Source: Marsupella aquatica (taxonomy: Eukaryota > Plantae > Marchantiophyta). Taken from it: 64,000 nucleotides of DNA. The notes under the pieces are model-generated. The model did no database searches and had not been told where the DNA came from. It saw only the letters and a program-made list of their open reading frames with translations. A program made the translations under genes and the position numbers. The DNA is taken from contig OZ316891.1 in assembly GCA_973895155.1 (NCBI GenBank), forward strand, positions 21,752,513 to 21,816,512, read 5' to 3'. This document shows, piece after piece, positions 12,485-50,490 of the stretch; the stretch's first letter is position 1, and the number at the start of each line of letters is the position of its first letter.

Positions 12485-12488
12485 GAGT

Positions 12489-12512
12489 AACCCCTATTTA
12501 GATAAAACTGGA
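12489..12512 (+). repeat. Element A left TIR
   Basis: AACCCCTATTTAGATAAAACTGGA. Confidence 0.9.
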
Positions 12513-12970: not shown

Positions 12971-15900
12971 TCATGAAGTTGATGCTGCCTCATCCTCTAA
13001 GCATCTATTCAAATTGTCTCTTGCTTTCATTGCATGACTTTTTGCTATTCTAACTAAGCCACTTTTGGCTGTGGTCCGTCCCTTGAAACACCATAGTACA
13101 GTGTTCACACTTATTGTCTCAGTGGAATACCCTGGATCACGTTCCCATTGTTGATTCCAACAATCTAACCACCGCTGTCGTGGCTCATATTCTGGCTGAC
13201 CACGTTTTCTTAGCATGTAAGGTCTATACCACTCCACAATACACACATGTTCAAGTTGATTGTTGGCATTCAACTCTCCTTCTTCCACATTACTAATCAC
13301 TTTGCCCAAATAAATTGGGTAAATATCTAGGTCAGCTGTGTCTGGCCGAACCAAGATATAATTATCTTTCATGATATCTACCCTTGGGTTAAAAGTTTCA
13401 TGAGGTTTGTCTTTCCTTGGTCCCACATACCCAATCTTTGCATCCAACTCACATGCCACATTGCGGTATTGCAAAGGAACACTATCTCTCCATTTTGACA
13501 TGGGCCAAAATCCATGAACCAAGTGTTCCTCTCCAGATCTATATTGCACCGCCTCTGTCTCCAAAGTATGGATAATTTGATTCCAGTATTGTATCAGTGC
13601 CACCCATCTACCCTTTCCTTCTTCTGAAGTAGTTCGATTGCAGACAAAATTAAAAAATTTCACTTGCTTATGTAGTCCTTGTCGCACCTCCTCTACCATG
13701 GCCATTTCTATCATTGGTAATCTTTTTGGTTCTCCTACGGGAAGTTTTGGACTATTATCATCCGTCCACGACCACATCTCAATACCTTCTCTTGGGAGCC
13801 AATCATCCTCTTGGCATTTCATTTTGTATTGAAGGCATGGCATACCATCATCACGCACATACAATCGAAATAGTCATGGTTGCAAATGCCCCACCAATGA
13901 GTCCCCTCCTTTAAGCAAGTATGGTTCCAAGTATGATTTAAAATTGGGCACCTCTTGCACGAAATGGGGAACTGGATGTGGAGTCCTTGCCCCCATTAAC
14001 AATGACATTAGATCTGCCAAAGAATAGGTTGGGTTACGCATTAAACTTTCAGAGAAATGGCCAAACATAGCATCAACATCCTCATGAGTATGTCCGACCA
14101 TGAGAAATCCCAGATGAATCTCTTCAAAAACATCTCTTGCCGTCAGTAGGGACAAATAACCCAACACATATCTGTTTTTGTTATCTCCTGCACAATTGTC
14201 AAGTTGTAACTTCAAAACTCTTGGAAGAGGCTTGAAGGTAGTAGACGCATCCAATGAGTGTGACTTCGCTGCAAAAATTTAAGAACCATATATATTAGGG
14301 TCAATAATTAATTTAGAGCCAAAACATTTTCATAGAGCCTACATATTTTCTTAGACATATAGAATAACCAATAATATACCATCATGGGCAACGATTTATG
14401 AACATAAACTCAAATGAACTATAGTTTCGAGTCTGAAATAAATAGTTAACGGTTCAAGCCATGGTTCTCACTAAGTTTTGCATACACTAACAACAAACCA
14501 TGGGTCACACTTTCAATAAGCTAGTTACAATGAACCATGGTTTGTGCTCTCAAATAAACTAACAATAAAAAATGGTTCATACTTTGAAATAAACTATCAA
14601 TGAACCATGGTTTGCACTTATCACATAAAATAACAAACAAGGATATATCCTAAGAAAATGACTCTCACATGAGCGAATAATAACAATCTTTATGTCAACT
14701 GACAATGAACTCTGGTTGACACCTTGGAAGGTCACATCACTTACAAAGGAAGCATGGTTGATACTGAATATGGCATAAAAATAACAACACTTATTTGCAT
14801 TGAAGTGAAATAATTACCTAGATTTGATATTTCGTCCTTAAATGCTTCACGAAGTTTTCCCTCCAATATAGGTCCTCGCCCCTCAAGCAAGTTTTCAAAT
14901 AGTTTTGTGGAATCTGGCCCTTCCACTAAAGATTTGATCATCGGTTCTGGATTTTCCAACATTCGAAGTATTGTGTCAAGTGAACCAATTGTGGCATTGG
15001 CATCAGGTGCCCACACTCCAACATTACATTGAGCAATAGCTTTTGGACCATGGCCATGAGTCAAAATACCAGTCAAGGTAATTGGAAGTTTAATCGCACC
15101 ATCCACTTCTTTCGGGCAAAAGGGCATCCTTGGTAGTGCAGTCTTACAATGATCCATTTTATCATGAATTATGCATAAGACCTGTTTTGGATTATCAACA
15201 GACTGGCGTCTCCAAGAGTGATATAATAATCTGCCTTCGGTATGATCACGATGATGAGCGATTTCATCCCTCTTTAAAATCTCAATCTCTTCTTTCACAC
15301 CGGTCAGATTTGCTTTCCGTTGCATCAACTCACTACAAGTTGTACACTTGGAAAAGTTATTGCCTTTCTTATGAATCGTCACTTCCTTGAAGTACTTTTG
15401 ATGTAAAATACTCAATGTGGACTGGGAGATTGGTTGAAGACCAAGCTCTAAATTTGTAGCATTGAGCTTGTTCCTAATACTTTCCCAAGTATAACTTGTA
15501 GGTAGCTCCTTTAAAACTTGTCGAGATTTGTCTGCAGTCGTCCTCATTTTTGCAGGATGAAGATCTGCGCACTCATCAATCAACCCATGCAATGACATAT
15601 AGGCTTGAGAAACTCGTTCAGTCATCCTTCTCTTTCCTTGGTTTCCATGATAAGCTATCCTCACCCCATTACCCACAGCCTTTCTGAGCTCATAGAATTG
15701 ACTTCGCCCTTTGGAGTGCAAAATCCTCCATGCCTCCAAGCATATTGCCTTCCCTTCAATGATGATTAGTTTTTCAGTATTAGATAGTTCCAATATATTG
15801 ACAATAGCATTGATCTCATACTCTTTTCGCATCTCAAATGATTTCTCCCAATAGTTCTCCCTAATCCCCCTTGCCACATGAGGGTCAAGAAGATGGCAGC

Positions 15901-16738
15901 ACCGACGAAGGCAACATTTCTGTTTTCTGATTTCCTCCACATCTTCTTTGGAAAGGGACTTGTCTTTCTTTGACAAAGAAAGAGAAGGTTGTTTTCTTTT
16001 TCTGGTTATTGGAATGTATGATCTCTTTCGACTTGAAGCATCTAGATCCTCCTCCTCTGCATCTACAAAAAATGAGGCTAATAGCCTTCCGTTACTTGTG
16101 ACGAGCCTATCCAATGGCCATGCCCTCAAACAATCTCTATGTTTCAGGTGATCATTGGTTGCACCTTGAATATATTCATCAATCAAGATTCCCACATGTG
16201 TATTTCGAAGAGTAGTATCTCCCAATGTCACTTCTGGATTAACAGCCATTACTCTTGCAATGGCAAAGGCAAAATGTGTTTCATCAAGTACTTTAACAAC
16301 CATTCCCATCCATAAACTTGTGGATGAAATTCGAAGAGGATTTCCACTAGATTCAACTCCATTCTCATTTGACCACTCCGGTTGGTTTCCTTGAGCTTCG
16401 TTCTCATTTGAGATCTCTGGTTGGCTGGTATCACTTCCATTGCTCGTTGAAGCTCCATTCTTGTATGAGGTATTAGGTAGGTATCCAGTAACCATTTCAA
16501 GTTGCTGAAGTTGACCTTTTTTCCAGACTAGAAAAGATCCTATCATGTCAGCCAAGCTTTCACCATGATCCCATTGAATTTCCCCATCAAATACTTCTTT
16601 CAAAGTAACAAGAACTTGAAGAGGAACATTATGGCAAATCCGAGATGGATCCACACTTTGAATGATACCCTTCGCAACCATTTTATTTGATATGCACAAA
16701 CCTACGGTTTCACCGACAATAATCCAAGATGTCGCCAT
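12971..16738 (-). pseudogene. Element A transposase, 2 exons (16738-14818, 14268-12971), ~1070 codons, one premature TGA at 13874-13876
   Basis: Putative triad IIHDKMD / LQLDNCAGDNKN / GHTHEDVD (41 residues between 2nd and 3rd Asp); Cys motifs CCLRRCC and FSKCTTC; splice CTAG|GT..AG|CG is in frame; the TGA aligns to Arg in the paralog at 62.2 kb. Confidence 0.88.
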
Positions 16739-18040
16739 TATTTTATCTGCACATTCAATCCAAATCAAAGTTAACCTCTGTTCCTAAGATATAGTTGTTG
16801 TTTTTTTCTCTGAATATACCCAAGGGACCGTATACTTTTTGTCTTAGTTTTCCAGACCTACTTTGTTTCCCTTGTTTCTCAATAGCCTTGAACTCTCGTG
16901 TAATTGTCTGAGATGAGTTGCCCTCACAACTAAGTTGGCAGGTTGTTACTTACCATTGAGTTCAAGAAGCATTGTGTACATTTGACCCAAAACCCTAAAC
17001 TACTACATACTTAAATGATGTCTTACCACAAGATGGCAACTGCAAACCATGGTTCGCTCCATTAATGAGAATATAAAAAAAGTACTAAGGCGTATAATTA
17101 CCATGACTATCTTTTATCATATTATAGATATGAAGTGTTTCTTATGGGGTGTTTTTATAGTATTGTCATCAAGAAACAGTGTTCAGGCTAGGTTTAAATT
17201 CACCATGAATGATACATGTTAAAACAAAAGCAAATCAGTATTACAAGAGAAAGTCATCTTGCATTATAATTGTTTGATGTATAATAATTCCATCAGTTTA
17301 GAATTCATAAGAAAGTCTTTATCAAATGTATTCTATTGGACTTATGTATGAGTTTCTCTTGACCAGAATGTAAACAATATTAAAGAGAGTTATAATCATA
17401 CTTAAGCAAAGCAGGAGACTGCGGTTCATGTATCATATAGATCATGTGACTATGAACCATGGTTTGTGGCCTTTGGTCATAGTCACATTTTTATTTTTCT
17501 AGCTAGGAGTATACTAGTCAGTTTGGTAATTTACTCCTAGTTTTAGATGATGCTGTTAAATAAGGCTCATTAATTCAAGGGCTACGTACCATGATTTGCA
17601 CTCACCTTTCATTTTCCCATCTACAAGTTGAGTTAGTTTGATATGGTTTGAACCATGGTTCGAAGTCACTTTTTACATGTAGGTGTAGAGTTGGTTCACT
17701 CCGAGTATTAGATAATTAATGCCATCAGATAAGCCTCTTACTAGGCACACGAACCATGGTTCATGGTCACTTTTTAAAGTTTTGATCATCTACTTGAAGT
17801 ATTAGAGGTTTCCTAGTCACCTCAGAAGTCATTTGTTTAAGAAAACCACAACATGACAAAGGTAGGGCTCATGTACCAACCACAAATACTTATCATAATA
17901 ACATTCTCCCACAAGTTATTTGGTGTTAAATCTAGGAGAAAGCACATACATATATGTTACTTTCATTCAAGTATCTTTGTTTGCTTATATGCGTTCAATT
18001 TTAAATTATGTATGTCAAGTAACCGTCACGCTAGTTAGTT

Positions 18041-19250
18041 TGTGAAAATCTACACTCAGGTAGATTATGATTGAAGTTGAACAGGTTAACAAAAGATTAA
18101 CCTCATCAAACATTAGAATGAATCGGATATATTACTCAGTTACAAATACAATCTACAATCTTAATGATTAAATTCTCACTTAAGTTCGAGTTAGGGAATG
18201 ATTCTTGAGTTCAAGATTCATATATATTATGAAGTGAATTGAGTTCACACATCACAATCTAATTCATCAATTCAATCTCTCATTCTAAGATTGAAGAAGA
18301 ACTAATGCAAAAAGGAAGAACTCGAATGGATGGTTACTTACAGTTTCAAGACACATACAGCTTGTATATCTTCTCTGCCACTCTAGACAGTTCACTCAAT
18401 CTTCATCAACAAATAACTCGTGCAGTCTCTTGCCAGTTCCTCTATAGTCGCACACTATGACTCTTTGATGAAGGCTGACTGTCTAATCTCCTCGATCGCT
18501 CTTCAATGTTAATCCCCGTGTTAATCTCTATCTCCTTGAACAATCTGTACTCTAAGAACTCCTCCCAGCTCTCCTCTTGAAGTATCCCCTCCCAGCACTT
18601 GAAGCACTCTCCTCGCAGCTTGAAGCGCTCTCCTCGTAGCTCTCCTGAATCAAAACCCTTTCCTAGTAAATGAACTCCATAGACGATCAAAACAGACTTA
18701 ACATTTTTGACTCCACAAGAGGATTCTAGAAGTTCGCATTTCAAAATGAAACTTTTGGGGGGAATTTTGAATTTTGACCTGGTTATGATTGCCTTGGCCT
18801 TCAGTAACTGATTCTCATGCCCAATCGATCTGATGCAAACTGATCATATCTTGTCTTGTAAATGCCCGGAGGTACCCTTCGAGCAGAGAAAAGTTTACAA
18901 GGCCTTGGCCGTAAAATTAATAAAATTTTCAATTATATGCTTGTAAATTGAAACAAATTTTTAACTTGCTATGGGGATCCTCACCTAATCTTTTAATTTG
19001 CACCCATTATACATTTACTACTAAGGTAACTTACTTCCTTTACGATTAAATTTACCATTTGTACTACCATAATTTATTTAACCTCATTTAATATTTTTAC
19101 TACCATCATTATTTAACCTACTAAGGTAACCTCATTCAATCTTTTTACTACCATAATTTATTTAAATTACTAAGGTAACCTGATTTGTTCTTTTTACTAC
19201 CATTATTTAATAGCCTATAACTAAGGGTAATACTCGCCTAAGATTTCACA
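18041..19250. mobile_element. Probable LTR-derived insertion inside element A
   Basis: TGTGAAAATC...GATTTCACA inverted termini and LTR-like composition; no TSD found. Confidence 0.35.
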
Positions 19251-20045
19251 ACACATATGAATTATCAGTCTTGTGCAACCATTATTTATTTGTACAATTA
19301 ACCCAAAGTCATCTTAGCTAATTTCTATGAAAAATACATGTTTTGGATCGCACGTGGTTCCTAAGATTTTTGATAGTCAACCCCCCGAGCATCTTAGGAT
19401 TAAGGACTGTTATCGATGTTTAGGCTTAAGGTTAAATAGAGTTAACCTAAGTAATGTTTAGGGTTCTAGGGTTTCATATTCAGGGTTCAGGGTTTAGGGT
19501 TTTTAAGGGTTTCAGCCTAAACCCTAACTAAACCCTAGCTAAACCCTATAACTAAGGCTAATACTCGCCTAAGATTTCACAACACATATGAATTATTAAA
19601 CCTACTCAGGTAAACACCCCTTAATCTTATTATATCTAAACCCTAAACCCCTAAACCCTAAATCTGATTATATATATTATGTGTTTAAACCCTAGGGTAA
19701 CCCTTGATCTCTTAATCCTTGTGCAACCATTATTAATTTAACTTACTACAAGGGCCTCTCTCAGTCTTGTGCAACCATTATTTATTTGTACAATTAACCC
19801 AAAGTCATCTTAGCTAATTTCTATGAAAAATACCTATTTCGGATCGCACGTGGTTCCTAAGATTTTTGATAGTCAACCCCCCGAGCATCTTAGGATTAAG
19901 GACTGTTATCAATGTTTAGGCTTAAGGTTAAATAGAGTTAACCTAAGTAATGTTTAGGGTTCTAGGGTTTTATGTTCAGGGTTCAGGGTTTAGGGTTTTT
20001 AAGGGTTTCAGCCTAAACCCTAACTAAACCCTAGCTAAACCCTAA
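19219..20045. repeat. Local tandem duplication (~290-330 bp) with TTTAGGG/CCCTAAA telomere-like motifs
   Basis: 19265-19547 is nearly identical to 19761-20043; each copy contains GGGTTCAGGGTTTAGGG followed by CCTAAACCCTAA. Confidence 0.9.
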
Positions 20046-22250
20046 AGCCCCTGAACAACCAAGTAGTCAAACCTCATTGTGGGCGCCCATGTGGTCTCTT
20101 GTGACATGTCCATTTCAAAATTCCGGGCCAATGGTTGTGCCAGATCCAAACCTAAACAAATACAAGGTCCATTTGTGTTTGTTGTGAAACTATTACAATT
20201 TATAATTTGTCTCGGGAACTCAGGGCCAAAGAGAATTCAAATTTAACGTACCAAATAAGAATGAGGAACTTTAAACCAACCATACTTTAAATTTCTTAGT
20301 TATTCTTTTTGAGTTTTCACTATGTTTATTTAGTTCTACTCGGGTACATTAGTATTCAAAGGCGCATTAAGAGAGTTTTGGCCATTATTTGCTGTGGGTC
20401 AAAAGCCCGTTTGGGTTGAGAGTTTTTATGTTGCAAATTGGGGTTGCTCAAGCTTTTGTTGAGATTCAACCATGTACTAATTATTGAAAAATGGTATAGT
20501 TAGCTAGGAGCACTATAAACCAACCATACTTTAAGTTAGTGGGTTCTTCTTATTGTGTTTTAACCATTCTTTGTAAGAGAGAGGCAGGTGGGTTTCGGGC
20601 ACCTAGTCGGATTCCTTTGCTTAACCCTCCTATGCAGTTTACGACTGAGCTTGACCAGGCTCTTCAGTATGTTGATAGGTAGGGTTTGGTTTTTGTGTGT
20701 CCTCTTATGCGGGAAACCCTGCCTGCTGTTAACCCTAAACTGATAAATGTTTTGGCCTTTTTTGTGTTCTCCCTTGATTGGGTTTTTGGCCTGTGGAATC
20801 TTGTCTCCCAGTTGGGCGCCTTCTGCTTTTGGCAGTTTGATATAAAAAATTAGTGCTATTAGCATATGTTGATATCCAAAGTATTTCAACCTTGCACATT
20901 TTCAACTGTTGAAAGAAGCAAAAATTATTGGTGACAAAATGTAAAAGATTAAGGTCCGGATTAAGGTCCAAGACAGTCCATTATTGATCAAAATGTTGTA
21001 TCAAACTATTCCCAGATGGATAATACATGATTAATATTTTGGATGAAGCTAGGAACTTGCAAATGACACTGTTCAAGTCTTGTCTTGATCATTTCATTGA
21101 TGGTCTCTTTTCTACTTGGCGAACCCTTTGTTTTCATGGACCTGGGGGAGAATGTAAAAGTAGATTAAGGGTCCAGGCATTATTGTAAGTGTCCGTTATT
21201 GCATTGTAAGTGTCCATTATTGTAAGTAGATAATTTGTGAGTGACTGTGGGAACTAAGCAAAGAGATAGCACTAGTCTAAACCCTAAAGCCCCTGATTCA
21301 AACCTTAACCTGGGGTTAGCCTTAGTCAAACCTCATTGTGGGCCCATGTGTGGGCCCTTGGGGCATGTCCATTTCAAAGTTCCGGGCCAATGGTTATGCC
21401 AGACCCAAACCTAAACAAATACAACTATGTGTGTTTTTTGTGAAACTACTACAATTTATAGTTTGTCCCGAGAACTCAGGGTCAAAGAGAATTCAAAACT
21501 AACGTGCCAAATAAGAAGGAGGAACTTTAAACCAACCATACTTTAAATTTCTTAGTTATTCTTTTTGAGTTTTCACTATGTTTATTTGGTTCTACTCGGG
21601 TACATTAGTATTCAAAGGCGCATTAAGAGAGTTTTTGGCCATTATTTGTTGTGGGTCAAAAGCCCGTTTGGGTTGAGAGTTTTTAAGGTGCAAATTGGGG
21701 TTGCTCAAGCTTTTGTTGAGATTCAACCATGTACTAATTATTGAAAAATGGTATAGTTAGCTAGGGGCACTATAAACCAACCATACTTTAAGTTAGTGGG
21801 TTCTTCTTATTGAGTTCTAACCATTCTTTGTAGGGGAGATGCAGGTGGGTTTCGAGCAACTAGTCGGATTCCCTTTCCTCCTAGTATGCAGTTTACTCGT
21901 GAGCTTGACCAGGCTCTTCAGTATGCGGATAGGTAGAATTTGGTTTTTGTGTCTCCTCTTGTGCGGGAAACCCTGCCTGGTGTTAACCCTAAACTGATAA
22001 ATGTTTTGGCCTTTTTTGTGTTCTCCCTTGATTGGGTTTTTGGCCTGTGGGATCGTGTCTCCCAGTTGGGCGCCTTCTGCTTTTGGCAGTTTGATGTAAA
22101 AATAAATTAGGGTGTGTTCATGGACCTGGGGGACCATGTAAAAGTAGATTAAGGGTCCATTATTGTAAGTGTCCATTATTGTAAGTAGATACTCTAATAA
22201 TTTGTGAATGTGGAAAGCAAGGAGATAGCACTAGTCTACACCCTAAACCC
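20035..22250. repeat. Direct duplication of a ~1 kb block
   Basis: 20035-21290 is repeated at 21280-22250 with an internal deletion; the ORFs at 20560-20889 and 21817-22176 are near-identical. Confidence 0.9.
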
Positions 22251-22436
22251 TTTTGATGGCTTTGATTAAAGCTGCTGTTGCATACCGTGAAGCTGGTAGA
22301 AAACAATTGAAGTCTTTTTCAAAACAAGTACTGTATAAAAATGGTAATTATGCAACAGCAGCTTTCGGCGAAGCAGGTTTAAGCAACACAGTCAAAAGGG
22401 TATGCAATAGCAGCTTTAATCAAAGCCATCAAAAGG
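22249..22436. mobile_element. Small MITE-like hairpin element, ~38-bp TIR
   Basis: CCTTTTGATGGCTTTGATTAAAGCTGCTGTTGCATACC versus GGTATGCAATAGCAGCTTTAATCAAAGCCATCAAAAGG. Confidence 0.8.
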
Positions 22437-23458
22437 ATAATTATGTAAGAGCAATGCCATGCCTAACGGCAAAAAAATGGAGTACAAGAGCAAGTCCCAG
22501 AGCAAGTTAGGATGGGTTTACCTCAAACTCCCTAGTAGAATAATCACAACTGAAGATACTTAGTTGAATCCGGGGTTGAATCCTGATATGTCTAGTTAAT
22601 CTGTACTAGAAATTGAGAACTCCAAGTTGTGTTGAATCAAATGGTTATACCTTGGTTCTTCAGCTGACCATAAACAATACGTTTGAAGACCATCGCATAG
22701 GAACCATCTACCACCCCTACAGAACCAAGATACATTAAGTTGTCAGATGAACTACTGCATTTTGATAAACCTTAAAAAGAACCTAGCTTTCTTATAATGT
22801 GACAAGCATACTACGGCTTAGAGAACAAATTTCTAACCACAACACTTCAAAATCCAGAATTAGACTCCTGGACCAACATGAAAAGATCTCACTGGACGAT
22901 CAATCTGTTAGGTAGAGACATAACTATTATCTCCAAGTTTCCCCATAAGTTCCACATAGTGATTAAGTCTTTACTTTGTTACTCTACTATATAGGTTTTG
23001 ACTCTCTGTTTTGGCTTTTTGTAAGTATGTGGTGTTGTGTTTGCAAATTGTTGTTGTGTTTGAATTTGGCATTGTGAGATGAAATCATAGTGCTCAGGGT
23101 CTCCAGGAGCATTACCAGGACGGAGCTCAAATGCATTGTACGTTCTCAATAATAGATTAACACTTGAAAAGTTTGAGGAAAACCCTGGGTAGTTGTGAAA
23201 ATAAGGGTATTTTGGTAGGAAGCACATCCATGAGGTTATAAATATCTCCTTAGGGATAGTTAGCTCAATGAATCTTTGTGTGACCAAAAGCTATTGGGAG
23301 ACAAGAAATATCCTTCAAGAGGGCCTCTTCTTTTGCTCAAAATTATATAATTTCCAAAATCTTGATATTATTTTTAAGAAACCAAGGGTCATAGTCAAAG
23401 AAGGGGAGTGTCATTTTTCTATTTGTCCACAAATCATTATGCAATTTGATCATGTAAA

Positions 23459-23486
23459 CCCTAAACCCTAAACCCTAAACCCTAAA
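23459..23486 (+). repeat. Interstitial plant telomere repeat (CCCTAAA)4
   Basis: Four perfect copies. Confidence 0.9.
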
Positions 23487-26400: not shown

Positions 26401-29400
26401 ACTTGATGTGAAAGTGATGGAGAATAGGTGAGCTAGCCTGTATGTGGAATGTATGTCGTCACTTTGCATCTATGTGTATAATTTTGATATCGACCAAAGT
26501 GAAGCAGAGCCTTGCTGCAGGGGTTTGCTAGCAGTTCCCATCACCTGCACTGTTTTTCATTCGTTTCTTCCAAGCAGAGCCTTGCCGCAGGGGTTTGCTA
26601 GCAGTTCCCATCACCTGCGCTGTTCTTTATTCGTTTCTTCCTGGCTCCCGGTTGTACTGGAGGATTGATGTTCCTTCAATCTCCTTCTCTGACTTGTCTT
26701 CCGATCTCAGTGTTTACTCAACAAGAAGTCTTGCTCATGGGCTTGTTTCAAAAGCATTTGAAAATCCTTTCCAACGATGCCTTAATCGCCTGTTTTCATC
26801 CAGTATTATTGAAAATCGTGTCACATTGACCCAGTCAACATTTATGCATTTTTCTGTGTCTAGCTATGTTATTTTTGCATTTTTTCGCCTACTTACGATT
26901 CATACTGCGTCTTCCTCTTTCTCTCAAAACCTGAGTGTCTAGGTTTGTTGGATGCGGCTTGACTTCTTCTTTCCAACGGTATAAAGAATGACACATTTGG
27001 TTTCCAGATCTTCCTACTCCGTAACATTTACGTGCTTTCATTGGAGCTCTGCATGACAGCTACATTTTTTCTATTCTCCTAACACTATGCCTGCTTCCGT
27101 TGGACAGGAGCGCTGCATGTCGGCGATGTATTTTATTGTTGCGCCTCTCCCAGAGAGCTAGTTTCTCCCAACAGGTATAGATCTCGGTTTTATTCTGAAG
27201 GTTATGTGATCGTTGGAAGCCAGGTACAGTAGTTCCCTATCTATTTTTAACGTTCTTAGCAATCTGATTGGAACAAGGATAAGACGAATTGACCATACAG
27301 TGTTATTCAAACTTAGAAAGTTTGACAAAGCTTGCAATAGATTAGAATTTAATTCTCAATGTCGATGTCAGCCTGACAAAAACTAGAATCTAGATCCATG
27401 CGTGAGATTATCTAACAAATGCCAAATTTTAAAACAATTCTGTAATCAGAAGGATAGCTACACAGCATAAAATTAAAATAGTAGTACATTTGTCTTGTGT
27501 GTAGATGGACACATCTTCTTTATTCTTCTGATGTCATTTGTACTTCCATTGGACAGGAGCGCTGCATGTCAAATATGTAATTTAGTGCTGAGATCCTCCC
27601 AGGGATGCTATTCAGAGTTAAACTACTACTTCACCAACAACGTACTTCACCAACAACAGAAGGTAGATCTGGTTTTCATTACCAAGGTTATGTGATTGTT
27701 AGGAAGGTACTTCCCTGTCTATTTTAATATTCTTACCACTTTGATTGGAAGAGGAATATTGCTCTCCTAGTTTTACGTCAGACAACACAAATTATGAAAC
27801 TATAATGTACTCTACATATTGATTCATCACTTTGCTTCCGACATGTGTTCTAACCAAGAGCAATGGCATTGATAAATTGTCTTGTAGACGTACATGAATA
27901 TAATTTGTAAAGTTTTTTATGTGCATCTCATCGTTTTCTGCTGCATGCAATTAAATACTGTGGTGGGTTTGCCAAAGTTTCAGTTCATTGTTTTAGCTTG
28001 TTGAAAATTATATTCACTATTTATCTTCTTTAGTGGTGGCCTTGTGATACTAAAGTTTGTTGCCTGGACATGTAGGTCCAAGACAACTTTGACTTCAACA
28101 CAATAGAGTGAGCAACAGGCGTAGCCGTTGACAGTAAAAGCACAGGTCAGATTTGGGTATGCACTAAACTATTATTGGGCAACTGCATATAATTAGCCTC
28201 TACGTGCCAGAAGTCAGCCCTGTCAATAATGCTAAAGAGTCCATAGATCGAGTCACTCAAGGAGAGGTATCTTTGTTGGGACTGTGTATGGATCGAGTAT
28301 CAATTGCAAGCATTCTTAGCACAAGGCTTGGTTTCTGTGCAAAGACAACTCAGACTAGTATATGGACGTACGTAGAGTTTAAGAAATTAATCTAAAAATT
28401 TGCTGCTAATTCATAACTAATCAATCGATCATGGCAAGAAGCTGAATATTTAGTCTGATATATCGAGGGCTTAGTTTGAGGTAAATTAAAAATGACTAGA
28501 TCAAATATTTTGGGCCAGATTCTGGGCCTTCTAAGATCTAGGAATTGATCTCAGTCAGTAAGGGTCGATAATGTATATATTGGCATATATGTGATTGAGT
28601 AGAGTAGAGTAGAGTAGAGAGGTCGGGGGGACGACTACCTGTGTCACAACATGAACTCATTTGTCCAACTTGCACGTCTTGGTCTAATTTAACATTCACA
28701 CTCTCACAGTCTGCAGTCTACCCGGCTGTCTACTCAGTTCAGTGTACAAGAATCAAGTGCCTTAGTTTCATTACGATGCTACATGTCGATAATATGCTTG
28801 TCAGAGTGTATGCTTGGCTGTGCAAACAGACCCATTCAAACAATTAATGCAGCAAACTGTTGTTGCTTACTGTTGGCAGCCATGTGGAAGATAGTAGCTT
28901 AGAGCAACACTCAACAATAGAGTTTCCAAGCACGCGGTAGGAAGACTAAATTTTGGTTGTATGTTTTCATTTGGTTCTACAAATCTCACATGCTTTTGAT
29001 CAGATTGTCTTTTTTTCCCTTCAGAAGTGGTTGTTCTTTAAATTAGTGTTCCTTTGTCACCTCCGCCCTTGCTATTTGGGTGGATTGACTCATTTGTTGA
29101 TCATGCCTCTCAGTATTGAGTCGTGTTCTTGTAACTCTTTGTGATTGGTAAGAGTTTTAATGCTCAACTTTTGGTTTTGTTCCTTTGTGTGGTGCAGTAT
29201 GCTGCGTAAAGGCGTGGAAGGCCAGGACTATTCTCACATGCTGTGTGAAGGCCAGGACTATTCTCAGTGGTAAGTGCTGCTACATGATTATACTGTTGGA
29301 CATCCTTAAGTCTCTATCGTTGTTTTGGAGCCTTTGTTAATTGGAAACTTCTTGTTATGGCATATCTGTTTGAATATATACCCTTTGATATTGGCTTTGT

Positions 29401-30099
29401 GAGCACATGATGAAGTGTGATCTTGGATGTGTTTGGCAGTCTAGGAAGGTGGATCGCGCTACCCCTTCTCATCTCAATAACTGGCCTAAACGTGGCATAT
29501 ATCCCTTTTTCTAATCCCCATCAGCGCGGAGTTGTTGAGGCTTGAGCTGGTCTGAGCAGGGTTGCTGAGCTAACTTGAAGTGCACTTGATCATAGGTAAC
29601 CTGCCCTCAATCTCTGTAGTCCAGAGTGTGCTGAAGATTGCCATAGCAAGATTTGTCCTATTGTGCTTGACTATTCCTAAAGGTCATTTTATGTTCATTA
29701 ACAATAACCAAAGTCTAAACTTGGAGGTCACAACTAAAAGTTTATGGAGGATTGTAATATCCCCTTCTTCCCACAATCCTAACTCAATCCATGAATCCTT
29801 CAAGTAAGTTGTTACGGACTATACACCTTATCAAAGAAATCATCCCTGAGGCCAGCAGCTAAGTCGTTACGGCCAGTGCATTTCCTGAATCCGTTCCATG
29901 TTGTGGAGTCCCAATAAAATCACTCCACTCCTAAGTCAGCTATCATTCCAGCAATCCCACTTTATGAAATGGATTGCATTTTATCCCTACCAGCTCAAAC
30001 CATGATGTGCAATTCAACTGTCTCTCACATCGTGTCCCCTTGGCCTCTCTGTGGTCAACTGAGCTAGCCTTCCTTTGAGGCAATACATTTATCAATTGC

Positions 30100-31000
30100 T
30101 GCATGAACCATGGCTTGTGCTGCGAAGCAAGTGACCTCGATTATCCTCCCAGTCGGCCCTGTCTCTGAAATAGATTTCCATGATTTCATATAGCACAAAC
30201 CATGGTTTGCACATCTTTATGTTAAGTCTAATTCCACCACTCTGACCTCAACTCACCTTCCTTTGAGGCATTACATTTTCCAAACCTGGTGCCTTGTACC
30301 TATCGTGGCACAAACCATGGTTCGTGCTGTGAAGGGGTAATATGTGACTCCCACTATCACAACTCACATCTGGACTTGGCTGTCCTTCCAGCCAACAATT
30401 TTCTAGCAAATGGATTTACATTTGTACTTGCAGCACAAACAAGGATTTGCACATCATGCATGTCCACCCAGTCCAATTTCTAATCTTAATGAAGCTCAAT
30501 TTTGCTTTCAAGGGCATGAACCATGGTTTGCTCTGAAGTTTATCTTCCTAGTCAATTTTTCTAGACCTTGTTGCACAAAGGGACCTATTGATATCCGAGC
30601 CTTATTACTTCATGTTCATTTTGATTGTTAGTGTTGCCATTCATTTAAGGTGAAAGTCATATCATTTGCAGTGCAAACCATGGTTTGCACTACTGAGAAT
30701 AAGTATCACAAGCCCTCATTGCACGAATCTTGGTTTGCAGTGTCCCCATTGATTTGTCCTGAAGTTCATTCCCTGTAACCATTTGCAGAGCAAACCATGG
30801 TTTGCAGTACAAAGAATAAATACCAGTCACAGCTAGCTATCTTGCACGAACCTTGGTTTGCACTGTCCCAGTAGTCTTTGATTCAATTCATTTAGATTCA
30901 AAGCTAAATATTATTCCATGAACCTTTGTTTGCACTATCCCTAGTCATCTTTGATTTCATCTAGATTTAGAGCTTGCAGCATGAACCATGGTTTGATGAT
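30100..31000. promoter_or_regulatory. Cluster of element-A palindromes (RCGAACCATGGTTCGY) upstream of the cargo gene
   Basis: About ten copies, e.g. ACAAACCATGGTTCGT at 30310, GCAAACCATGGTTTGC at 30673, ACGAACCTTGGTTTGC at 30846; function inferred. Confidence 0.6.
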
Positions 31001-31190
31001 CTACATTTTGCCAGAATCCAAACTACTCTATGCTGTCCCTGGGAGAAAATTAAGTCAAACATTTCAAAATATCTGGTTTCTTTGAACATTCAACATGTTC
31101 TTTAAAGAATATCCTTGACACATCTTGCCGACAGTATTCTTATGATCAAATTTGTTTTTGTTGTGAAGCAGAGCGAGAACGCACATAGTC

Positions 31191-34100
31191 ATGGCATCCG
31201 AAGGAGAAACTAGCAAGAAGAAGCGGAAGTCTTTGGAAAAAACTGATGGAAGCCCAAAAAAAAGGAAAGCGAAAGTTAGAAAGGGTGTCACAGGAGTGAA
31301 TTCCATCACTAATTTTTGTGGGAGGAAGATGACATTGAAATCCACCATCACCGATACTGTTGTCCGAGTTGAACAGAAAGATATGAAGCACTGGGGAGTG
31401 GTGCTTGATAAGAATGTTCTTCGGATGTGCGTCGCTTCTGAAGAGGGGACTTTGGTATTGTCAGACTCTCGAATTCTCAGTTGTGTTTATGAGAAAAATG
31501 TCAACCTGAAAGACTGTCAAGAGGCTTTGGTCCTTCTGGTCGAGGAGGATACCGTCGATGAATCACAAAACAATAGGATTTGCTATTGTTTCTCCATAGA
31601 GGTATTTGGGATGTTTGACCAAACATACATTGAGGCAAATTGTAGATTATCTCCGGAGGCATTCTCAACCATTTTGGATCCCACATTCCCAAAGGTTTCT
31701 ACACTCATAAATGGCCCAAGCATTGAGAGGTACATGTTATCCATCTTGGCATGGGCAAAATGCACCTTCCCGGAAACATTTCGTGTTGGAAAGAAGGAGG
31801 AACTTGAGAAGCAATCCAAGTTTGAAACAGGAGAACTTCCAAAAGTGATCACTGGAGAAAACATTGGAGATCTTTGCAAGAGTTTCAATGGTGTTTATAA
31901 AAAAGCAAACATCTTTGATAGTAGAGTTTTCAATGTTGAAAATTTGAAATGCCACATTGCACCCAATGTTGTAAAATGTAGAGGACATGACCCTGATTAC
32001 TCAAGGGACCTTGCCAACTCGATGAAATTTCAGTCGTTGGTAAATTTTGAGAAGCGGGTTTGTTTCCTCATCCCAGTGCTTTGGGATGAGAGCAGGAGCA
32101 CTGAAGTTGGCTATTGTGGGACTCCATTGTCACACCCACCGATCCTTGATCAAATTGACAATTATCATTTTTGGATAATTGGAGGCCAGCACACAGTAAT
32201 AGCTTACCGATTACTTTTGAATGATGAATCAGTGGATGCTGCTATTCATCAAAAATGCCTTACAATTGATGCCGTGATGTTTTGGGCACCATATGATTTG
32301 GCTGGGAACCTGGTAATGATGGGATTATCAAAGACATTGAATCATGTCCATCACACAGCGATGGATGAATCCCAATTTTTCTTGATTGCAAGACAGGTCA
32401 GAGATATTTGGAAAAGTTATGGATGTCCTCCTTCAGAGACAAACAGCACCAAAGATTCAAAATGGAAGGTAAGAGTCATATATTTCATAAGTTTATTTTT
32501 ATTCTTGTTTAACTTCTGCTAGTGCATCTGAATGCAATAGAATGTGAAAAGTATAACAGTGTGAACCATGGTTCGTATCCACCTAATGATTTTAGTTGTG
32601 TGTGAACAACACTTCTCAAAAGCAGCAATGATCGTCATCCCTTGGGCTAAAGAGGAGAATGGAAAATTTAATTTGGGTGAACTTGGACCTTTCATCTTAA
32701 ATATGATAGATTCCACCTTCAACTTGTGGATGAAAGTTTACGAGATGTCAAGAGAAGGAAAATTGGTTGCTTTCAATGGGTTCTTACAGAGAGATGTTAT
32801 TAAGAAAGATTCTGCTCAAGGAGCTTGGGAGGTGGCACGAAGAACATTTCGGGATTTTCTTGGTGTTGAAGATGCAGTGTTGATGAAGATTGCAAGGTAT
32901 CTTCTTACCAATAAGAAGATCTCACTAATGAAGCAACGAAGTAGCGGAATTGCAAAGAAGATAGATGCAGTTCCTATCGAAGAAGATTTCATTGCTCTTG
33001 ATGAGTATTGCGTTCAAAAGAAGCAGGATAAGGAGTTTGAGATACTGCTTTTGAAATATCTTGCAAAAGATAATATGCCTAAGGGGAAACTACGAGCGTT
33101 GCCCATGGAGCAGAGAATCGAGAAGGTGAATGCAATGCGAGCTTTTTTTAAGCTTACTCCAGATAAAGTTGAAAAACTTTGAACTACGCTTGGACCTGCA
33201 GTAATCCCAAAATCATTAACGAAGAACACTGGAAATGACGAGTTGCAAAATCTTTTGCCTGGAGTTTTTAAGAGTTTGATATGGTCAATCAGGGCTTCAG
33301 TGGATGGAAAAGGTAATCCGGTGGTTGTGAAACTTGACCCAAAACTTAGGTTTTGTTCAAATGAGGGATTTGGAACTCCTGCATTTTTTTGTCCAATCAT
33401 CTTGGAATTGAAAGAAATGGCAACATTCATATTCTTGGATGCTACCATGATACCTGGAATAAGTCCCATGACACGGAAGACATATGAAGCATTCTTTGAT
33501 GCAGCTTCTATGATTGGGTCCAAACCATCTCATGTCGTGGTAGTGATATCATCTGCGATCGACTCTTTCTTTGTGATGAGTGCCATTTCAGCACACCCAC
33601 ATTATGTTGCATTCACAACACAATACTGGACACAATCTCGACCGTCATCTTCTACATCGACAATTTATGATGTCAATTGTCTTTTTGTAACTTATGCATT
33701 CTTCAAAGTGTCATTCACTGAAGAATGTGAGGCAGATGAGATTTCTGGAAAAATTTTGTTAAGCTTTAAGAAAGCAGGATGTTTGAAGAATTATGAAGAG
33801 ACAACAGAAGATGTTGCAGAGCAGACTCAGTTTGGGGAGAAAAGCAAGAGTTTCTATGATAACTTGACTTCTCAACTTGTCTCATTTGACAAGTTTTCTG
33901 TCTGTTTTGGAGATGGCCGACATCTGATCCACTCCCTTTTGGTATGAGTTTTTAAACCCCAAACCTTACAGTTGAAAGTTCATTTAATTATTCAACTATA
34001 TTGAAATCCCAAGTATTAAAACTCAGTCTCATGGTTTTGCAGAACTTGGGAGCTCGGGTACGTTCATATTGTGACGAGTCTAATCACGAAGGACTTACGC

Positions 34101-36660
34101 AGTTCTTTTCTTCCACAAACAAGTTTAATCATGATCAGCCTGAAGAAGCATCATGTGAACTTCGAAGTATTTTAGAGAAAAATATTGCCAGATTGATGAA
34201 GTATAATTTGGCCAAGAAGAATATGAGAGAGGACATTATTGAGCTTTGCAAAGATACCTTACACCTTGGTGAAAGTAGTATTGCTCGTGTGATCAAGGAA
34301 TATGGATTGGGCAACATTCCTGAATCAGATGACAAAGTCTACGAAATGCCAACCAATGTTCCTACTGATCCACTTGGAGGTTAATATGACTACCATTTGT
34401 TATAAACTACCATATTCAATAGCTAATGATGAATTAAGTAGCCAAACTTGTCATATGCCAGATATGAATCATGAATTATAAATCGATGTTCTCAAGAGAA
34501 TGATGTACATGATTTGATATAGAATGATTGATTGATGAAAATATTAGAATGAACCATGGTTGGAACAAGTTGGATGTGTGAAGTTAGATAAATTTATCAA
34601 GACAATATAGAACCTATTATTTGGTATAGTCCAAACATTTCAAATGGATAATAATTCCAACTAGAGTTGAAGCAAATACTAATACGAACTGAACAACCCA
34701 ATCATAGTTTTAACTTGTCAAATGAATCGCTTAAATTCTATAAATAGATTAACTTACTCTGGAATTTTGTGAAAAATTAGATTAGTACTTAACATAATAT
34801 AGAAAACACTTGTCTAATACATCATGTAGTCATTGAAATTAGGCAAAGCAAACTAATAGCGATATTTAATAAATAAAAATAATTAGAAGTTTATTGGTTC
34901 ACCATATTTATCTATTGTTTGTTGTTTTGGTTGTAGGAGATGAAACCAATTCTATTGAGGACGAGAACAAGGATGAGGACGAAGAGGATAACATTGATTC
35001 CCCGAATGCTTGGCAGCCACTAAAGTTGGATCACGTGGAATCACCAAATGATTCAATGGAAATTCTTGACTCGTTCAGGGCTTTCCAAACCGAACCAGAG
35101 CTCAATGTCGAGGAACAAGGAGTTTCAATGACCAAAGGAAGATGCCCTACCTCAAATCTAAATGCAAAGAATGTTAAAAATATCCAATCAAATTGTAGCC
35201 GTGCTGGGGTGCAAGAATCAAATCAAAGAAACAAAAATGAAGTGGCATTTGATGAAACCAAAAGTAAAAATGAGCGAAGAATGATTGTCCGCAAATTTGT
35301 GTGGGAAAATTATATTCCTGATCAGGAAACCAGTTGCCCAGATCACATTTCTACAATAGATTGGGATGAGTTCTTTCGAAGCGAAGCTCAATTTCATGGG
35401 TGGAAAGCAAGAGCATATTGGCATGAAGCTTTGACTCATCGCTCCGGTTTGGAAACCCCTGAACAAATCACTAATTTACAAGATAATGTCTATTATGCAA
35501 CAGAAGTATGTGAAATGGTTGGAGATCCTCCTATTGATGTTTTTGCCATTCAAAGTGAACCTAAAAGCACTATTAACAAATGGACTTGGATGAAGGAGTA
35601 TCAACTAATCTCCAACCCTATCACTAACTCTATAGATACACCCGTGTCTAATCTTAATGATGCTACACTAGATACATGTGCAGTTTATCAAAGTGATTAT
35701 GAACAAGCAATCATCCAAGATTTGGGTGTGAAGAGAGATGATTCTTTCATTCCAAACGAGGAAACAATAAGAGACAATGCTTTGGTCGTGAATCCAATGG
35801 TGGAGCAGATGGATCCTTTACTGGTTGAAACTAACATTTTGGGCACGTCTCCCATATCGACAGAGCAAGTAAATGTTGATGGTGATCCAGTGGAGAAGAA
35901 AATGGATCCTTCAATGGTTGAAACTAACATTTTGGACGTGCCTCCCACATCGACAGAGTCAAGAAATGCTAACAACAACCTAGCAAGGGAGCAGATGGAT
36001 CCTCTAGTGGTTGAGACTAACATTTTGGATGTGCGTCCCACATCAACAGAGCCAATAAATGCTAACAATAACCTAGCAAGGGAGCAGATGGATCCTCTAG
36101 TGGTTGAGGCTAATATTTTGGATGAGCCTTTCACATTGACAAAGCCAAGAAATGTTGACAGCAACCTAGCAAGGGAGCAAATGGATCCTCTAGAGACAAG
36201 AAATGTTGAAATCAATGCACAAGTGGATCCTGTTATGATTTTGGCCGAAAAACCAAAGGTGTCTCACACATCGATGGACCCTAAAACAAATGAGAGTGAT
36301 TTGTTGGTAGATAGTGAAGAACATCCTTGGATCCAACAAGCCACTAACCTTGAAGATCAAGACATACCGGAGGTGGGAAAAATTGCGCCTTGGGAAGAGG
36401 AAGCATCTGCTGCAGCCTACGCTGATGGATTGAATGAATTACCACCTCCTTTTTTGGGGATCCCATTAGTTTCAACTTCTCATGGAGATTGTTCACAAAC
36501 GACTCCGGCAACAAGAATGGAGCTTCCTAAGACTGGTTCCAAGGTCATTCCAGGTCGTGCCACTCGACGGGATTCAAAGAGACCCTCGGTGATAGAAAAA
36601 GTTACTATGCTGCCAAAGGTGAAGAAGACACCTCAGCAGATTTTGCGCAACAAGAAGTAA
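31191..36660 (+). pseudogene. Element A cargo gene: NLS, ParB-like domain, degenerate amino-MTase-like fold, acidic/repeat tail (4 exons)
   Basis: KKKRK/KKRK NLS; YHFWIIGGQHTVIAY; FIFLDATM...EKSKSFYDNLTSQLV...CFGDGRHLIHSLL|NLGA; donors at 32469, 33942 and ~34380; premature TGA at 33180 (Arg in the paralog); homologous to 49229-44450. Confidence 0.75.
35803..36192 (+). repeat. Coding tandem repeat, 93 bp (31 aa) x ~4
   Basis: EQMDPLVVETNILDVPPTSTESRNANNNLAR-like units. Confidence 0.9.
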
Positions 36661-36778
36661 TGATTTTATTTTGACTATACTTAAAATGTATAATGTTTTT
36701 CATAGTGCTATAAATTGTTTGATTGTTTAGGTGCAATCTGAGCCCAAACCAGCAAATTGGTCATAATGGTTGTGAATA

Positions 36779-37589
36779 GTGTATAGTATCAAGGAAACTT
36801 ACCCATTATGGTTGCAAAAGTCATTGCAACAAGATAAGAGGGAACACTTCCAAATATGGATCAATACTCAGTATATTCGTGATCATGGAGATAGAAATCA
36901 TTCAAGGAGATTCCATGTGTTTAATAATCAGGGTACATTTTGGACTACTTATCACACTTATTTGTAGAATGAACCATGGTGCATAGTTAATTTATGACAT
37001 ATTTTTGGGTACTATTCTAAATCTCATCTGTGTGTGTTGTGTACAGGTGAGAGTTGAAAAATTATTCAGGAAATTACTTGTCATAAGTATCAACAAGTTC
37101 CTCATTTACACAACTGGGGTCTCTCGTCATTTGAAGAAGACATCATCTTTCCGAGTTTATAACAAAATGATCTTTCCGAGACCATATGTACAAGAATTTC
37201 TTGAATTTTGCACTTCAACTTTTGATGTGGTTCTTTGGGCACTCACTGACACATGCAAACTGGCTGATCAAATGGATCCAATACTCACAGATAAAGCTTT
37301 GAGTTTTTCTGGTCTTAAGTATCTTACATCAACTTTGATGGACATGAAACAGATCAATGATATTTATCCACAATATCAAAGACAAAATGTTATATTTTTA
37401 GAGTGTTATCCATCATTTGATAGTGTAAATCCAATGTATTCAAGGCTGTATCCCAAGCCGTATTATGGTAATTGTAAAGACAATTTTCTTAGAGGCACAC
37501 TTATTCCATATTTACATAATCTAGAAGATTCTGGTCAGACAGCGCATAAGTTTATTAAATATCACTATCCTACTTGGTCTGAAGTATGA
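36779..37589 (+). CDS. FCP1/SCP (NIF)-like HAD domain exon (37047-37589) plus a C-terminal remnant of a second one (36779-36920)
   Basis: KLLVISINKFL...FPRPYVQEFLEFC...FDVVLW...DNFLRGTLIPYL; catalytic DxD replaced by SIN. Confidence 0.75.
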
Positions 37590-38759
37590 GACAGTATCAA
37601 TAGAAATGTAGTAAAAGAAACCACAGCTTGTGTGGTGTAGTGTTTAGAATATATTCAAATGTATTCTTTTTGGATAATAAAAGTTACATTATTTACGTGA
37701 AAAATTGAAATGATTGATTACTGCATTATATATTCATGAATGATTACTTGTAATGTTCATTTTACTTCATAATGTCGAATGCCAAAATGTCTACTTGTAG
37801 AGCAAAAATTCTATTCTTGAACTCAGTTTTGGCAGCACCCGATAATACTTGTAAATTCAGTCTTTATATTCATAGTGTCTGATGCGAAAATAGATACACA
37901 TAGTATAAAACTTGTCATTTTGTAGAGATCTACTAGTGTTAAATGCAAAAAATTTGGCTTAAGTTTCTTTTAGGCCCTTGGAACTTATTGAGTATTATAG
38001 CCAATATTAATTCTCAAATTCAGTAGATACCAATTTAAATGAAAACTTTTTGTTTACTCACTATCAGTGTATTGCATTGAATATGCATTTCACCAACAAA
38101 TTAGAATACGAACCATGGTTTATTGTATGTTTTGACACTTAATTTGGTTTACTTCTTTTTTTGTTTGGGGAGGGGGGGGGAATAAAACCCGCAAAAACCC
38201 ATGGGAAGGGGGGCCCAACAGGGCAACAAAGACAGAGGCAGCAAAATGCAAACCTATGAGATGGAGAGAGAGCCCCAATGAGCAAGGACAAAAAAAGATG
38301 CGGTCCATGCAAGCAAGGAAAGACACAATCCAAAAGAAAAGTGTCCAAGCGTGTGACCCACCTAAGATGTTCCTGACTAACTAATTCTTTTACTCTAAGT
38401 AATCTAGTATGTTTTCTACCAAGACCCGAGGCTTTGCAGAGGCCATGCAAAGAGTCTAACATTTATGAAAGGAGTAGATTCAAGTTAAACACTCAATTTG
38501 GTTTACTTTGTTTAAATTGTTCCTATCACATGTGACTGAACTTGGATCCATCAGGTTTTTGTTGATGTCCTGGAGCATACCATACTTTCAAACTAGAGGA
38601 AAAGAGTTAATACAATGGGGGAAAATGGAAGTCTTGGACACTTCCCCCTTATATATGGCCCGTGGTGGTTTAAATTTATTTATTTATTTATTTAAATGAA
38701 TTAAATAAATCAGTAATATCTTTGTAAAACTTCATTTAAGCATTTATGGAATTGAAAAT

Positions 38760-38783
38760 TCCACTTTTATCTAAATAAGGGTT
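38760..38783 (-). repeat. Element A right TIR
   Basis: Reverse complement AACCCTTATTTAGATAAAAGTGGA, 22/24 identical to the left TIR. Confidence 0.9.
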
Positions 38784-40592: not shown

Positions 40593-40864
40593 TTATAACC
40601 CCAATTTAAGGAAAACCAAACTTTGGAAATTCCGAAAATAACTAAATATTATTATTTTAATAAAAAAGGGGCGACATGACGCGTGGCTGCGCGTGAAACC
40701 CTGAAAATGACTGCAACGTCACATTTTAACCAATCCAACTTGACGGGACCAAGAGACATGCTCACGCGAATAATAGTAATAGAGAAATAAATCTTTGAGA
40801 TCCTTTATATATGATAATCAGTATATAAGGAGTTTACAAATGGTTTCTAGAACGACAATACAAA

Positions 40865-41600
40865 TTAATTTGATCTCATGCCGACTATTATTTTGGAAGC
40901 GTCCAAAATTGGGCGTCTGTTAAATTGCTCTACTAGATATCTATCTCCATGCCTCAAAATCACAGGGTCTTCCCATAGAGTATGATTATAATCATAATCT
41001 CTAAAAATATATTTAACTGACCAATTAGGATAATCTCTTCCATTGGCAATGACAAGCGGCTCACAAGAGTTTGCTAGCTTGCTAAGATACGGAATCAGCA
41101 AGTTAATCAGGAAACTGTCGTCGACCGACCCAAAATATTTGGGCGGAAATAATGATCCAACAACAGGATCTAAACAAGCATGAAATGCATCGGATTCGAT
41201 AAGCATTATATTTTGCTACAGATATGCCTTCGTATAAATTCCAACCTTCTCAAAACACTTCAAAAATATCCGCTTATTTGATGTCACCCCATCGCATAAG
41301 TAACAATGAGACTGATCCCAAATATACTTAAATGAGGCCATTTCCATCGCAGTAAAAATAGATGCTAAAATTTGATCTAAAAGGTTCTTCCCAAGAGAGG
41401 ACCAGATCCCTACATCGAAATTCTCAAAACAAAATCTCAAGAATTCATGAAGATGAGGCCTTGGAAAAACGTATATATTCCCATCTGAATTCCAGTTGAG
41501 ACCGCCATCAGTCGGGAATGCGGTGCAGTGTAATAGAGTATATGCTCCATGTCTAAAACTATGAGCCCAGGCATTTTCTTTGCTGCAATGAATCTCCTGT
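40865..41600 (-). pseudogene. FCP1-like HAD domain #3 (element B)
   Basis: LIVLDMEHIL...FPRPHLHEFLRFCFENFDVGIWSS...DDSFLINLLIPYL; frameshift, and TAG at 41216. Confidence 0.8.
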
Positions 41601-41682
41601 AGAGAAACACAAGAAGATGCATGAGCCCGTATGGATGTAGTCACGCGAATGGTCGCGTCACATATTACAGAGACAACATCCT

Positions 41683-42390: not shown

Positions 42391-42521
42391 CTATAAATGA
42401 ACAATTCGATTCTCATATTATGCAATTGCAAACAACCACGCGATCGGGCGCGTCACTCCCAAAATATAAAGTTCAATTTCAATCAATTTATAAATAATAA
42501 TTGATAATAAACAATAAATGT

Positions 42522-43292: not shown

Positions 43293-43513
43293 CCGTACCT
43301 GTGATTTTTGTGCCGCAGGGTTTGGAGAACGTACTAGAACGGTCTATTTGTTTCCCGCCTCCGGACGATCACCGGACTTCCGGACTGGTGCCTTCGATAC
43401 TCGATCAGGGGGTTTCGGGATAGGCTTCTGTAAAACATTAAGAAATGAAAATAAGTTTATAACGTGAACGGTCGCATGACTACAAAGGAAGACACTAAAA
43501 TGAAGTGTATTAC

Positions 43514-44303: not shown

Positions 44304-44449
44304 TGTAAAAAACAGAGATTTCAGTACGCCTTCAAATAACGTACTGAGGTTGTAGCCTAAGGGTTCTACCTCAAAAAACAGAAACAATAACAAATCAATA
44401 ATAAAATAATGACGTCTATAATAGAAACTTTAAGCTTATAGCTTGCGAA

Positions 44450-49229: not shown

Positions 49230-49304
49230 TCTGAAATAGACAAATATTGAAAGTTAAACGTTTATTATAAAATACTAACACGCGCATGGTCGCGTCGTGC
49301 CGAA

Positions 49305-50425: not shown

Positions 50426-50490
50426 CCTGCTTTTATCATATCACAAAACATTGTTAGAAGACATATGATGCGCTTGGTCACATAAGTTAA

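Follow-up and report, generated by a model that had tools for sequence, protein, structure and literature searches.

A 64-kb stretch of the Marsupella aquatica genome (contig OZ316891.1; the window, hereafter, is this whole stretch of 64,000 nucleotides) contains a giant transposon, element A, which carries a palindrome of its own in promoters and introns. A first-pass annotation of the sequence had pointed out this palindrome and read its copies as binding sites of a ParB-like protein encoded by the element itself. Our analysis confirms the palindrome and partly supports this reading of the sites. The explanation that we favour with reasonable confidence is that the palindromes are predicted sites of the element's ParB-fold accessory protein, which would thereby recognise and regulate its own family.

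Element A extends from 12489 to 38783 (26.3 kb) between 24-bp terminal inverted repeats (left, 12489..12512 on the + strand, 92% complementary to the right one, 38760..38783 on the - strand). GAGT flanks it on both sides as a 4-bp target-site duplication (12485..12488, with identical bases at 38784-38787). It encodes a DUF7869 transposase on the - strand (12971..16741) and, on the opposite strand, a cargo gene whose product is the putative ParB-fold protein.

Palindromes of element A

The 10-base core AACCATGGTT is found in 15 exact copies in the window, all of them between 14533 and 38120, compared to an expectation of 0.10 (0 of 100 shuffles as high). Allowing up to 3 mismatches to the 16-base consensus RCGAACCATGGTTCGY, we found 22 matches (0.44 expected), 21 inside element A and one at 60971. 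The count of about 20 copies in the first-pass annotation is thus borne out by exact cores and looser matches alike, both strongly enriched over expectation, while its statement that the motif is absent outside the element holds except for the single variant at 60971, which lies in a related element, C. A symmetric matrix trained on the A sites gives the same picture, with 24 of the 25 window sites scoring at least 12 bits located in element A. Confinement of the palindrome was assessed within the 64-kb window.

The full 16-mer RCGAACCATGGTTCGY has no exact occurrence in the window, and to this extent the description of the motif as a 16-bp palindrome refers to a consensus. At positions 2-3 of the half-sites (n = 42) we counted CA 18 times, TG 13, CG 9, CC 1 and TA 1. 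Scarce TA together with an excess of CA and TG is the outcome of single deamination of methylated CG, and a reconstructed ancestral RCGAACCATGGTTCGY is therefore reasonable. The counts also fit the earlier statement that the variants are mostly CpG transitions. CpG decay plausibly shaped the half-site variants, and selection by a binding protein could yield an equal pattern.

The positions of the sites agree with those given before. Four palindromes lie in the transposase intron (14454, 14493, 14530 and 14600, within 14454..14615), partly in a 72-bp tandem unit, and five ahead of the transposase start (17042, 17452, 17584, 17648 and 17749, within 17042..17764). A cluster of 11 (29995..30996), in which no tandem array was found, ends around 195 bp before the cargo start. 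Single copies are located in cargo introns 1 (32561..32576) and 3 (34549..34564). The copy at 36969..36984, previously also placed in a cargo intron, has the stop of the long exon on one side and a NIF-like frame on the other and is not established as intronic. The last palindrome (38108..38123) is 660 bp from the right end. The exon intervals of element A, which make up about one third of it (8459 of 26295 bp), contain none of the 21 sites (p value of about 3e-4 if the sites are independent).

The 30-base flanks of the A sites are near random (mean identity of 0.31 compared to 0.29). Because the flanks are unrelated, only the word is conserved, and an unrelated small repeat as the source of the motif was rejected. 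A subterminal repeat array was rejected as well, since the sites are far from the element ends: the outermost ones are 1965 bp (left) and 660 bp (right) from the termini. A middle part of 12.2 kb (17765..29994) is free of the motif and has no long open reading frame; it holds a duplicated 1.25-kb unit and telomere-like TTTAGGG runs. These runs and the duplicated unit, together with a small hairpin element (22249-22436), occupy 19265-23486 and are apparently common to near-identical copies of the element.

Contigs assembled from public runs show few differences over element A (2-5 per 1-2.6 kb). In one run (X2), depth over the element is 110-150 compared to about 12-15 for flank-specific contigs, although depth is not copy number. 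These contigs hint at a young multi-copy family in which the cargo frame is open in other copies, and most of the decayed motif variants would then be common to the family. A second run (X1) contains a deeper sister family, about 94-95% identical (13210-18000), and its alignments are interrupted where the intron and promoter stretches carry the motif; these stretches thus turn over faster than exons.

The transposase gene comprises two exons (16741-14818 and 14268-12971; PF25273, E = 2.9e-35), and the script model of 1073 codons contains a single in-frame stop, at codon 773. Elements of the Sola superfamily duplicate 4 bp of their target and end in inverted repeats, as element A does, and we class its DUF7869 transposase as putatively Sola-like. 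GingerRoot was rejected as an identity for element A, being integrase-like and not DUF7869 in the description available.

The cargo protein and its relatives

The cargo gene has four exons on the + strand, with 1556 codons and one in-frame stop in the script model. Exon 1 (31191..32468) encodes an uncharacterised N-terminal part followed by a predicted ParB N-terminal domain (about 31923-32351). Exon 2 (32610..33941), whose start was set by homology, encodes a helical region and, after it, a methyltransferase-like region whose motifs are degenerate. Exon 3 (34043..34379) has an open frame in the model, and exon 4 (34937..36660), acidic and of low complexity with a 93-bp coding tandem repeat, reaches the end of the model at 1556 codons. 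In this copy the acceptor of exon 2 is AA instead of AG, and a stop is found at 33180-33182; contigs from three of the four public runs have C at 33180, the fourth being without cover.

AlphaFold, given 42 aligned relatives (P0154 left out), models the later half of exon 1 with a predicted local distance difference test score (pLDDT) of 80.7. The top Foldseek match of this model is ParB-CDP (E = 4.6e-3, prob 0.99). A second aligner, which re-scored Foldseek's candidates and was no independent search, superposed 92 residues on Myxococcus ParB (Z of 10.1, root-mean-square deviation of 2.1), and its top 12 rows are all ParB, Noc, PadC or KorB (Z 8.2-10.1), with sulfiredoxin reaching at most 6.6. 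Cargo exon 1 is predicted from these models to have a ParB/Srx N-terminal fold, which lends support to the earlier proposal of an element-encoded ParB-like protein. By sequence, the cargo has no significant match in PDB, Pfam, PHROGs, NCBIfam or phage records, the best being the ParB-like phrog_1033 (E = 0.12). Full-length relatives of exon 1 were absent from 2459 candidates, which is weak evidence. A protein search with P0015, whose structure model is uninformative at a pLDDT of 0.35, returned two proteins, and the sole named homologues are from the liverwort Calypogeia fissa. The match of P0020 to a bacterial helicase (E = 1e-4) is regarded as due to chance and was discarded.

Throughout the alignment of relatives, a signature motif GGQHT (32181-32195 in A) or DGQHS stands where ParB has arginines. 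The available text of a Caulobacter ParB study reports that R103A and R104A abolish binding of cytidine triphosphate (CTP) (PMC8367383). With the arginine pair replaced, a CTP clamp is doubtful, and so, judged from the motif, is a CTP switch in the cargo protein. Exon 2 begins with a helical region at the position of the ParB DNA-binding domain (model pLDDT 42, 10 sequences). Its end resembles an amino-methyltransferase by eye, and methyltransferases lead the weak fold lists (CcrM, E = 0.25; Z of at most 5.9). Methylases of this type carry a DPPY catalytic motif. At its expected place we read DATM in A, DPSS in B and DFRN in relatives outside the window, in a region that is poorly conserved (17-29%), and no methylase match was found in Pfam, PHROG or NCBIfam. 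The cargo is thus unlikely to be an active methylase. Downstream, a NIF/FCP1-like phosphatase domain (37047..37589, + strand; PF03031, E = 8.5e-10) lacks DxDxT and reads ISINKF, the catalytic aspartates being absent; an in-frame join of this frame to cargo exon 4 was not found.

If the cargo protein reads the word, diverged relatives should have other palindromes in the same places. This held in a second element of the window and in 9 of 10 loci outside it. Element B (40597..52100, - strand) has a similar terminus at 40597, and its ParB-like cargo (49229-46606) is a paralogue of the A cargo (36% identity over 310 residues). Neither its right end nor a transposase was found in the window. The palindrome of element B, ACGCGACYRGTCGCGT, is present there in 17-19 copies (17 matches compared to 0.07 expected), upstream of the cargo, before the start and in the first intron; two of the 17 lie within stop-to-stop frames, where exon limits were not set. 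The A and B matrices, applied at a threshold of at least 12 bits and trained on these same sites, are mutually exclusive: 24 of 25 A sites are in element A and none in B, while all 19 B sites are in B and none in A. Element B further holds a Ulp1 protease (E = 8.9e-18), three NIF-like frames whose catalytic motifs are degenerate, and three frames that weakly resemble an F-box.

Outside the window, an alignment of 18 relatives, around 20% identical to the A cargo protein, led to 10 metagenome loci (L001-L010) chosen by protein similarity alone, on contigs of 1.4-6.1 kb. Nine of them carry a third motif type, a TTTGGGTCGATCGACCCAAA-type palindrome or its GAGC-centre variant, at 78 sites; the tenth is nearly all exon. 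None of the 78 sites lies in exon-1 intervals. They are concentrated in the upstream region, immediately ahead of the start codon, and within introns 1 and 2. Like element A, both B and the outside loci have their own motif in cargo intron 1. The loci contain 35 perfect 16-bp palindromes in 34,566 bp compared to 0 in 5 controls. The GAGC-centre variant is restricted to one clade of near-identical proteins and, as a single event, does not by itself demonstrate co-evolution. Among viral contigs we found no relative of the cargo protein and no match to the outside motif. A family-specific tag beside the ParB-like gene thus appears, from these sequences, to be a lineage-wide trait. In L001, the palindromes that precede the ParB-like gene are accompanied by a duplicated 140-bp hairpin-forming unit (1509-2036).

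Element C (60512..64000, - strand) leaves the window. Its terminus has 17 bases in common with that of B, and it encodes a second DUF7869 transposase, about 50-77% identical to that of A by segment. A small repeat interrupts element C at 63180-63480. In its only palindrome, ACGCACCAGGGTGCGT at 60971, the outer bases are B-like and the centre is A-like.

The remainder of the window is rich in repeats. The repeat within element C is one of three copies of a 270-300-bp sequence resembling a miniature inverted-repeat transposable element (38843-39107, 59877-60158 and 63180-63480), with very deep cover in public runs. Broken gag-like frames (53500-57200), presumably resembling a long terminal repeat retrotransposon, follow a GAGCGA-rich array (53070-53465). 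Tandem arrays are present at 446-1603 (175 bp) and 39193-39794 (147-157 bp), and the left flank has three small elements bounded by inverted repeats (10042-11015, 4888-5377 and 3037-3395).

Possible function of the palindromes

Judging from the sequences, the cargo protein quite probably binds the palindrome of its own family. It would do so in dimeric form and with the helical region that follows the ParB domain, like ParB, Noc and KorB; the accessible part of one study describes ParB and Noc as binding palindromes as symmetric dimers, with specificity shifting through few residues (PMC7383237). The protein would be a scaffold and not an enzyme, because its arginine, methyltransferase and NIF phosphatase motifs are all degenerate. 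Sites are dense at both divergent promoters, single in the cargo introns and missing from the ends and the 12-kb middle, a layout that fits gene control better than end recognition. Given binding, we lean slightly, by analogy, towards an activating or anti-silencing role. Occupied divergent promoters and introns would keep the transposase and the cargo expressible in a methylating host, like VANC on VANDAL, and protein and motif, by diverging together, would keep the control of each family private.

Several observations weigh against this explanation. The Foldseek E value of the ParB domain is just 4.6e-3, and Pfam gives nothing. GQHT or GQHS takes the place of the CTP-binding arginine pair, an equivalence taken from the motif and not from residue-level superposition, and the exon-2 model has no helix-turn-helix or ParB DNA-binding match. 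Both genes in this copy of element A carry an in-frame stop. The outside loci, selected by gene, short and transposase-free (no transposase was found on these 1.4-6.1-kb contigs), cannot separate the ParB-like gene from the transposase as the source of the binder. Finally, element A bears no sign of protection from CG methylation: its observed/expected CpG ratio is 0.38-0.43, as poor as the flank, with 0.19 in the cluster, and CG is kept in 9 of 42 half-sites. The same ratio is 0.84-0.89 in element B compared to about 0.4 around it, and 0.63-0.97 in the outside loci, a contrast that could equally stem from age or host. The VANDAL-type anti-silencing role alluded to in the first-pass annotation is accordingly at odds with the CpG depletion of A and in keeping with B and the outside loci, which are not, or less, depleted.

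The CpG record also bears on the possibility that the ParB-like protein binds but acts structurally or negatively, by bridging or compacting the 26-kb element for transposition or by KorB-like repression of its own two promoters. The depletion of A suits no anti-methylation function, the fold matches include KorB (Z 8.2-8.3), and the evidence for binding is common to this possibility and to our favoured explanation. Nevertheless, sites that crowd gene starts and introns and leave the 12.2-kb gap and both ends bare are a poor layout for end synapsis, and element B and the outside loci keep their CpG, as if escaping methylation or young. We consider a structural or repressive role unlikely. Still less likely is the transposase as the binder, acting as a sequence-specific activator. 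Its gene contains or follows nine of the 24 A sites and, according to the available part of a recent report, the AtMu1 transposase activates its own family, but AtMu1 binds at terminal repeats (10.64898/2026.08.24.746577), whereas the A sites are 1965 and 660 bp from the ends and do not resemble the terminal repeats. Moreover, B and C have 17 terminal bases in common yet different palindromes (with one site only in C), and it is immediately in front of the ParB-like gene that the sites are densest, both in A and B and in the outside loci.

It is improbable that the motif is a site for a host transcription factor, a signal in RNA or for splicing, or a tiny repeat that has left a neutral trace. 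Some clusters do sit in tandem arrays (of 72 bp in the A intron, of 80 bp and of 189 bp in element B, and of 74 bp in L003), which are able to multiply any word. However, the flanks are unrelated, lone copies occur in distant introns, the motif is found both in transcribed sequence and ahead of genes, and a different palindrome per family is unexpected for a shared host factor. Least probable of all is that the cargo, as an active methylase of the N4-cytosine or N6-adenine type, marks the DNA surrounding the palindromes. Such an activity was put forward for Sola1-1_Ec32 in the available account (PMC12477816), and methyltransferases head the weak exon-2 fold matches; the degenerate residues at the DPPY place, the low conservation around them and the lack of any Pfam, PHROG or NCBIfam methylase match speak against it.

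Beyond the binding of its palindrome by the A cargo protein, one may speculate that the giant transposons of seed-free land plants run a domesticated ParB/parS code, in which each family has a palindrome and a matching ParB-derived reader that, without CTP arginines or methylase chemistry, spreads along the element from sites in promoters and introns and shields or activates its own family only. We hold this broader proposal tentatively. If true, plants would have, besides VANC and independently of it, another anti-silencing system, one derived from bacteria, and the families would make up a natural library of protein-DNA pairs that are orthogonal to one another.

Comparison with known systems

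Element A resembles bacterial ParB/parS, Noc/NBS and KorB/OB, as far as their published accounts were available (PMC8367383, PMC7383237), in the N-terminal fold, the multiple palindromic sites and the paralogue-specific specificity. Unlike these proteins, the A cargo lacks the arginine pair and has long insertions and large extra domains, and its site has another sequence. Unlike bacterial ParABS, no ParA was found among the frames scanned (30 of 87; the short frames of the element middle were not scanned).

For VANDAL and VANC of Arabidopsis, binding and demethylation are reported as demonstrated in the available text (PMC5735166), and VANDAL has been described as the sole transposon for which binding and modification of its own sequence are known in the accessible part of a preprint (10.1101/2025.02.11.637652). 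Both VANDAL, as described there (PMC5735166), and element A have short family-specific motifs in non-coding sequence and introns, partly multiplied in tandem and diverging with the accessory protein. The VANDAL motifs, however, are 9-base words in one orientation, and the transposase is of the Mutator type (PMC5735166). Element A has instead a DUF7869 transposase and a predicted ParB-fold cargo, with no VANC-type Pfam match; among the frames scanned (30 of 87) no Mutator transposase or VANC-type family was found.

Closer parallels come from algae. Sola1-1_Ec32 of Ectocarpus (21.5 kb) has a ParB-plus-methylase accessory gene opposite its transposase, for which self-binding was proposed in the available account (PMC12477816). 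Like it, element A is giant, with an accessory gene opposite the transposase and a ParB-like domain followed by a methyltransferase-like one. It differs in its land-plant host, its degenerate methylase motifs and its added NIF-like domains (in B also Ulp1), and in the family-specific palindromes documented here, of which the available account of Sola1-1_Ec32 makes no mention. PAG3 of the red algal Plavaka elements has a ParB-like N-terminal domain and inverted repeats near its gene, and binding was proposed in the accessible part of the preprint (10.1101/2025.02.11.637652). The A cargo shares this type of N-terminal domain, and the best HHpred match of PAG3, 7BNR, is also among the best for the A cargo. 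Unlike the A cargo, PAG3 is described there with a 2OG-oxygenase domain and in EnSpm/Plavaka elements, and its repeats form tandem arrays beside the gene, whereas the A palindromes are dispersed through introns and both promoters. Fusions of ParB-type helix-turn-helix domains to methylases are described for chlorophytes and chytrids in the available part of another study (PMC4738411).

Two 2025 papers on algal transposons proposed self-binding by ParB-like accessory proteins, and the window makes this idea directly testable. Two paralogous proteins and two mutually exclusive palindromes stand side by side and, with two further motif types in relatives, form a cross-specificity matrix. For green algae, the source that the algal-transposon papers cite is reportedly Iyer and colleagues (2011). 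In the literature covered, outside subscription journals and Repbase, we found no land-plant case of a ParB-like transposon accessory protein. The window extends the design to a land plant of the bryophyte type, a group with tractable models, and raises the question of whether the ParB fold works on chromatin without the CTP switch. A system of this kind has thus already been proposed in algae; what is likely new here is the land-plant host, the degenerate catalytic motifs, the NIF and Ulp1 cargo and the family-by-family divergence of the palindrome.

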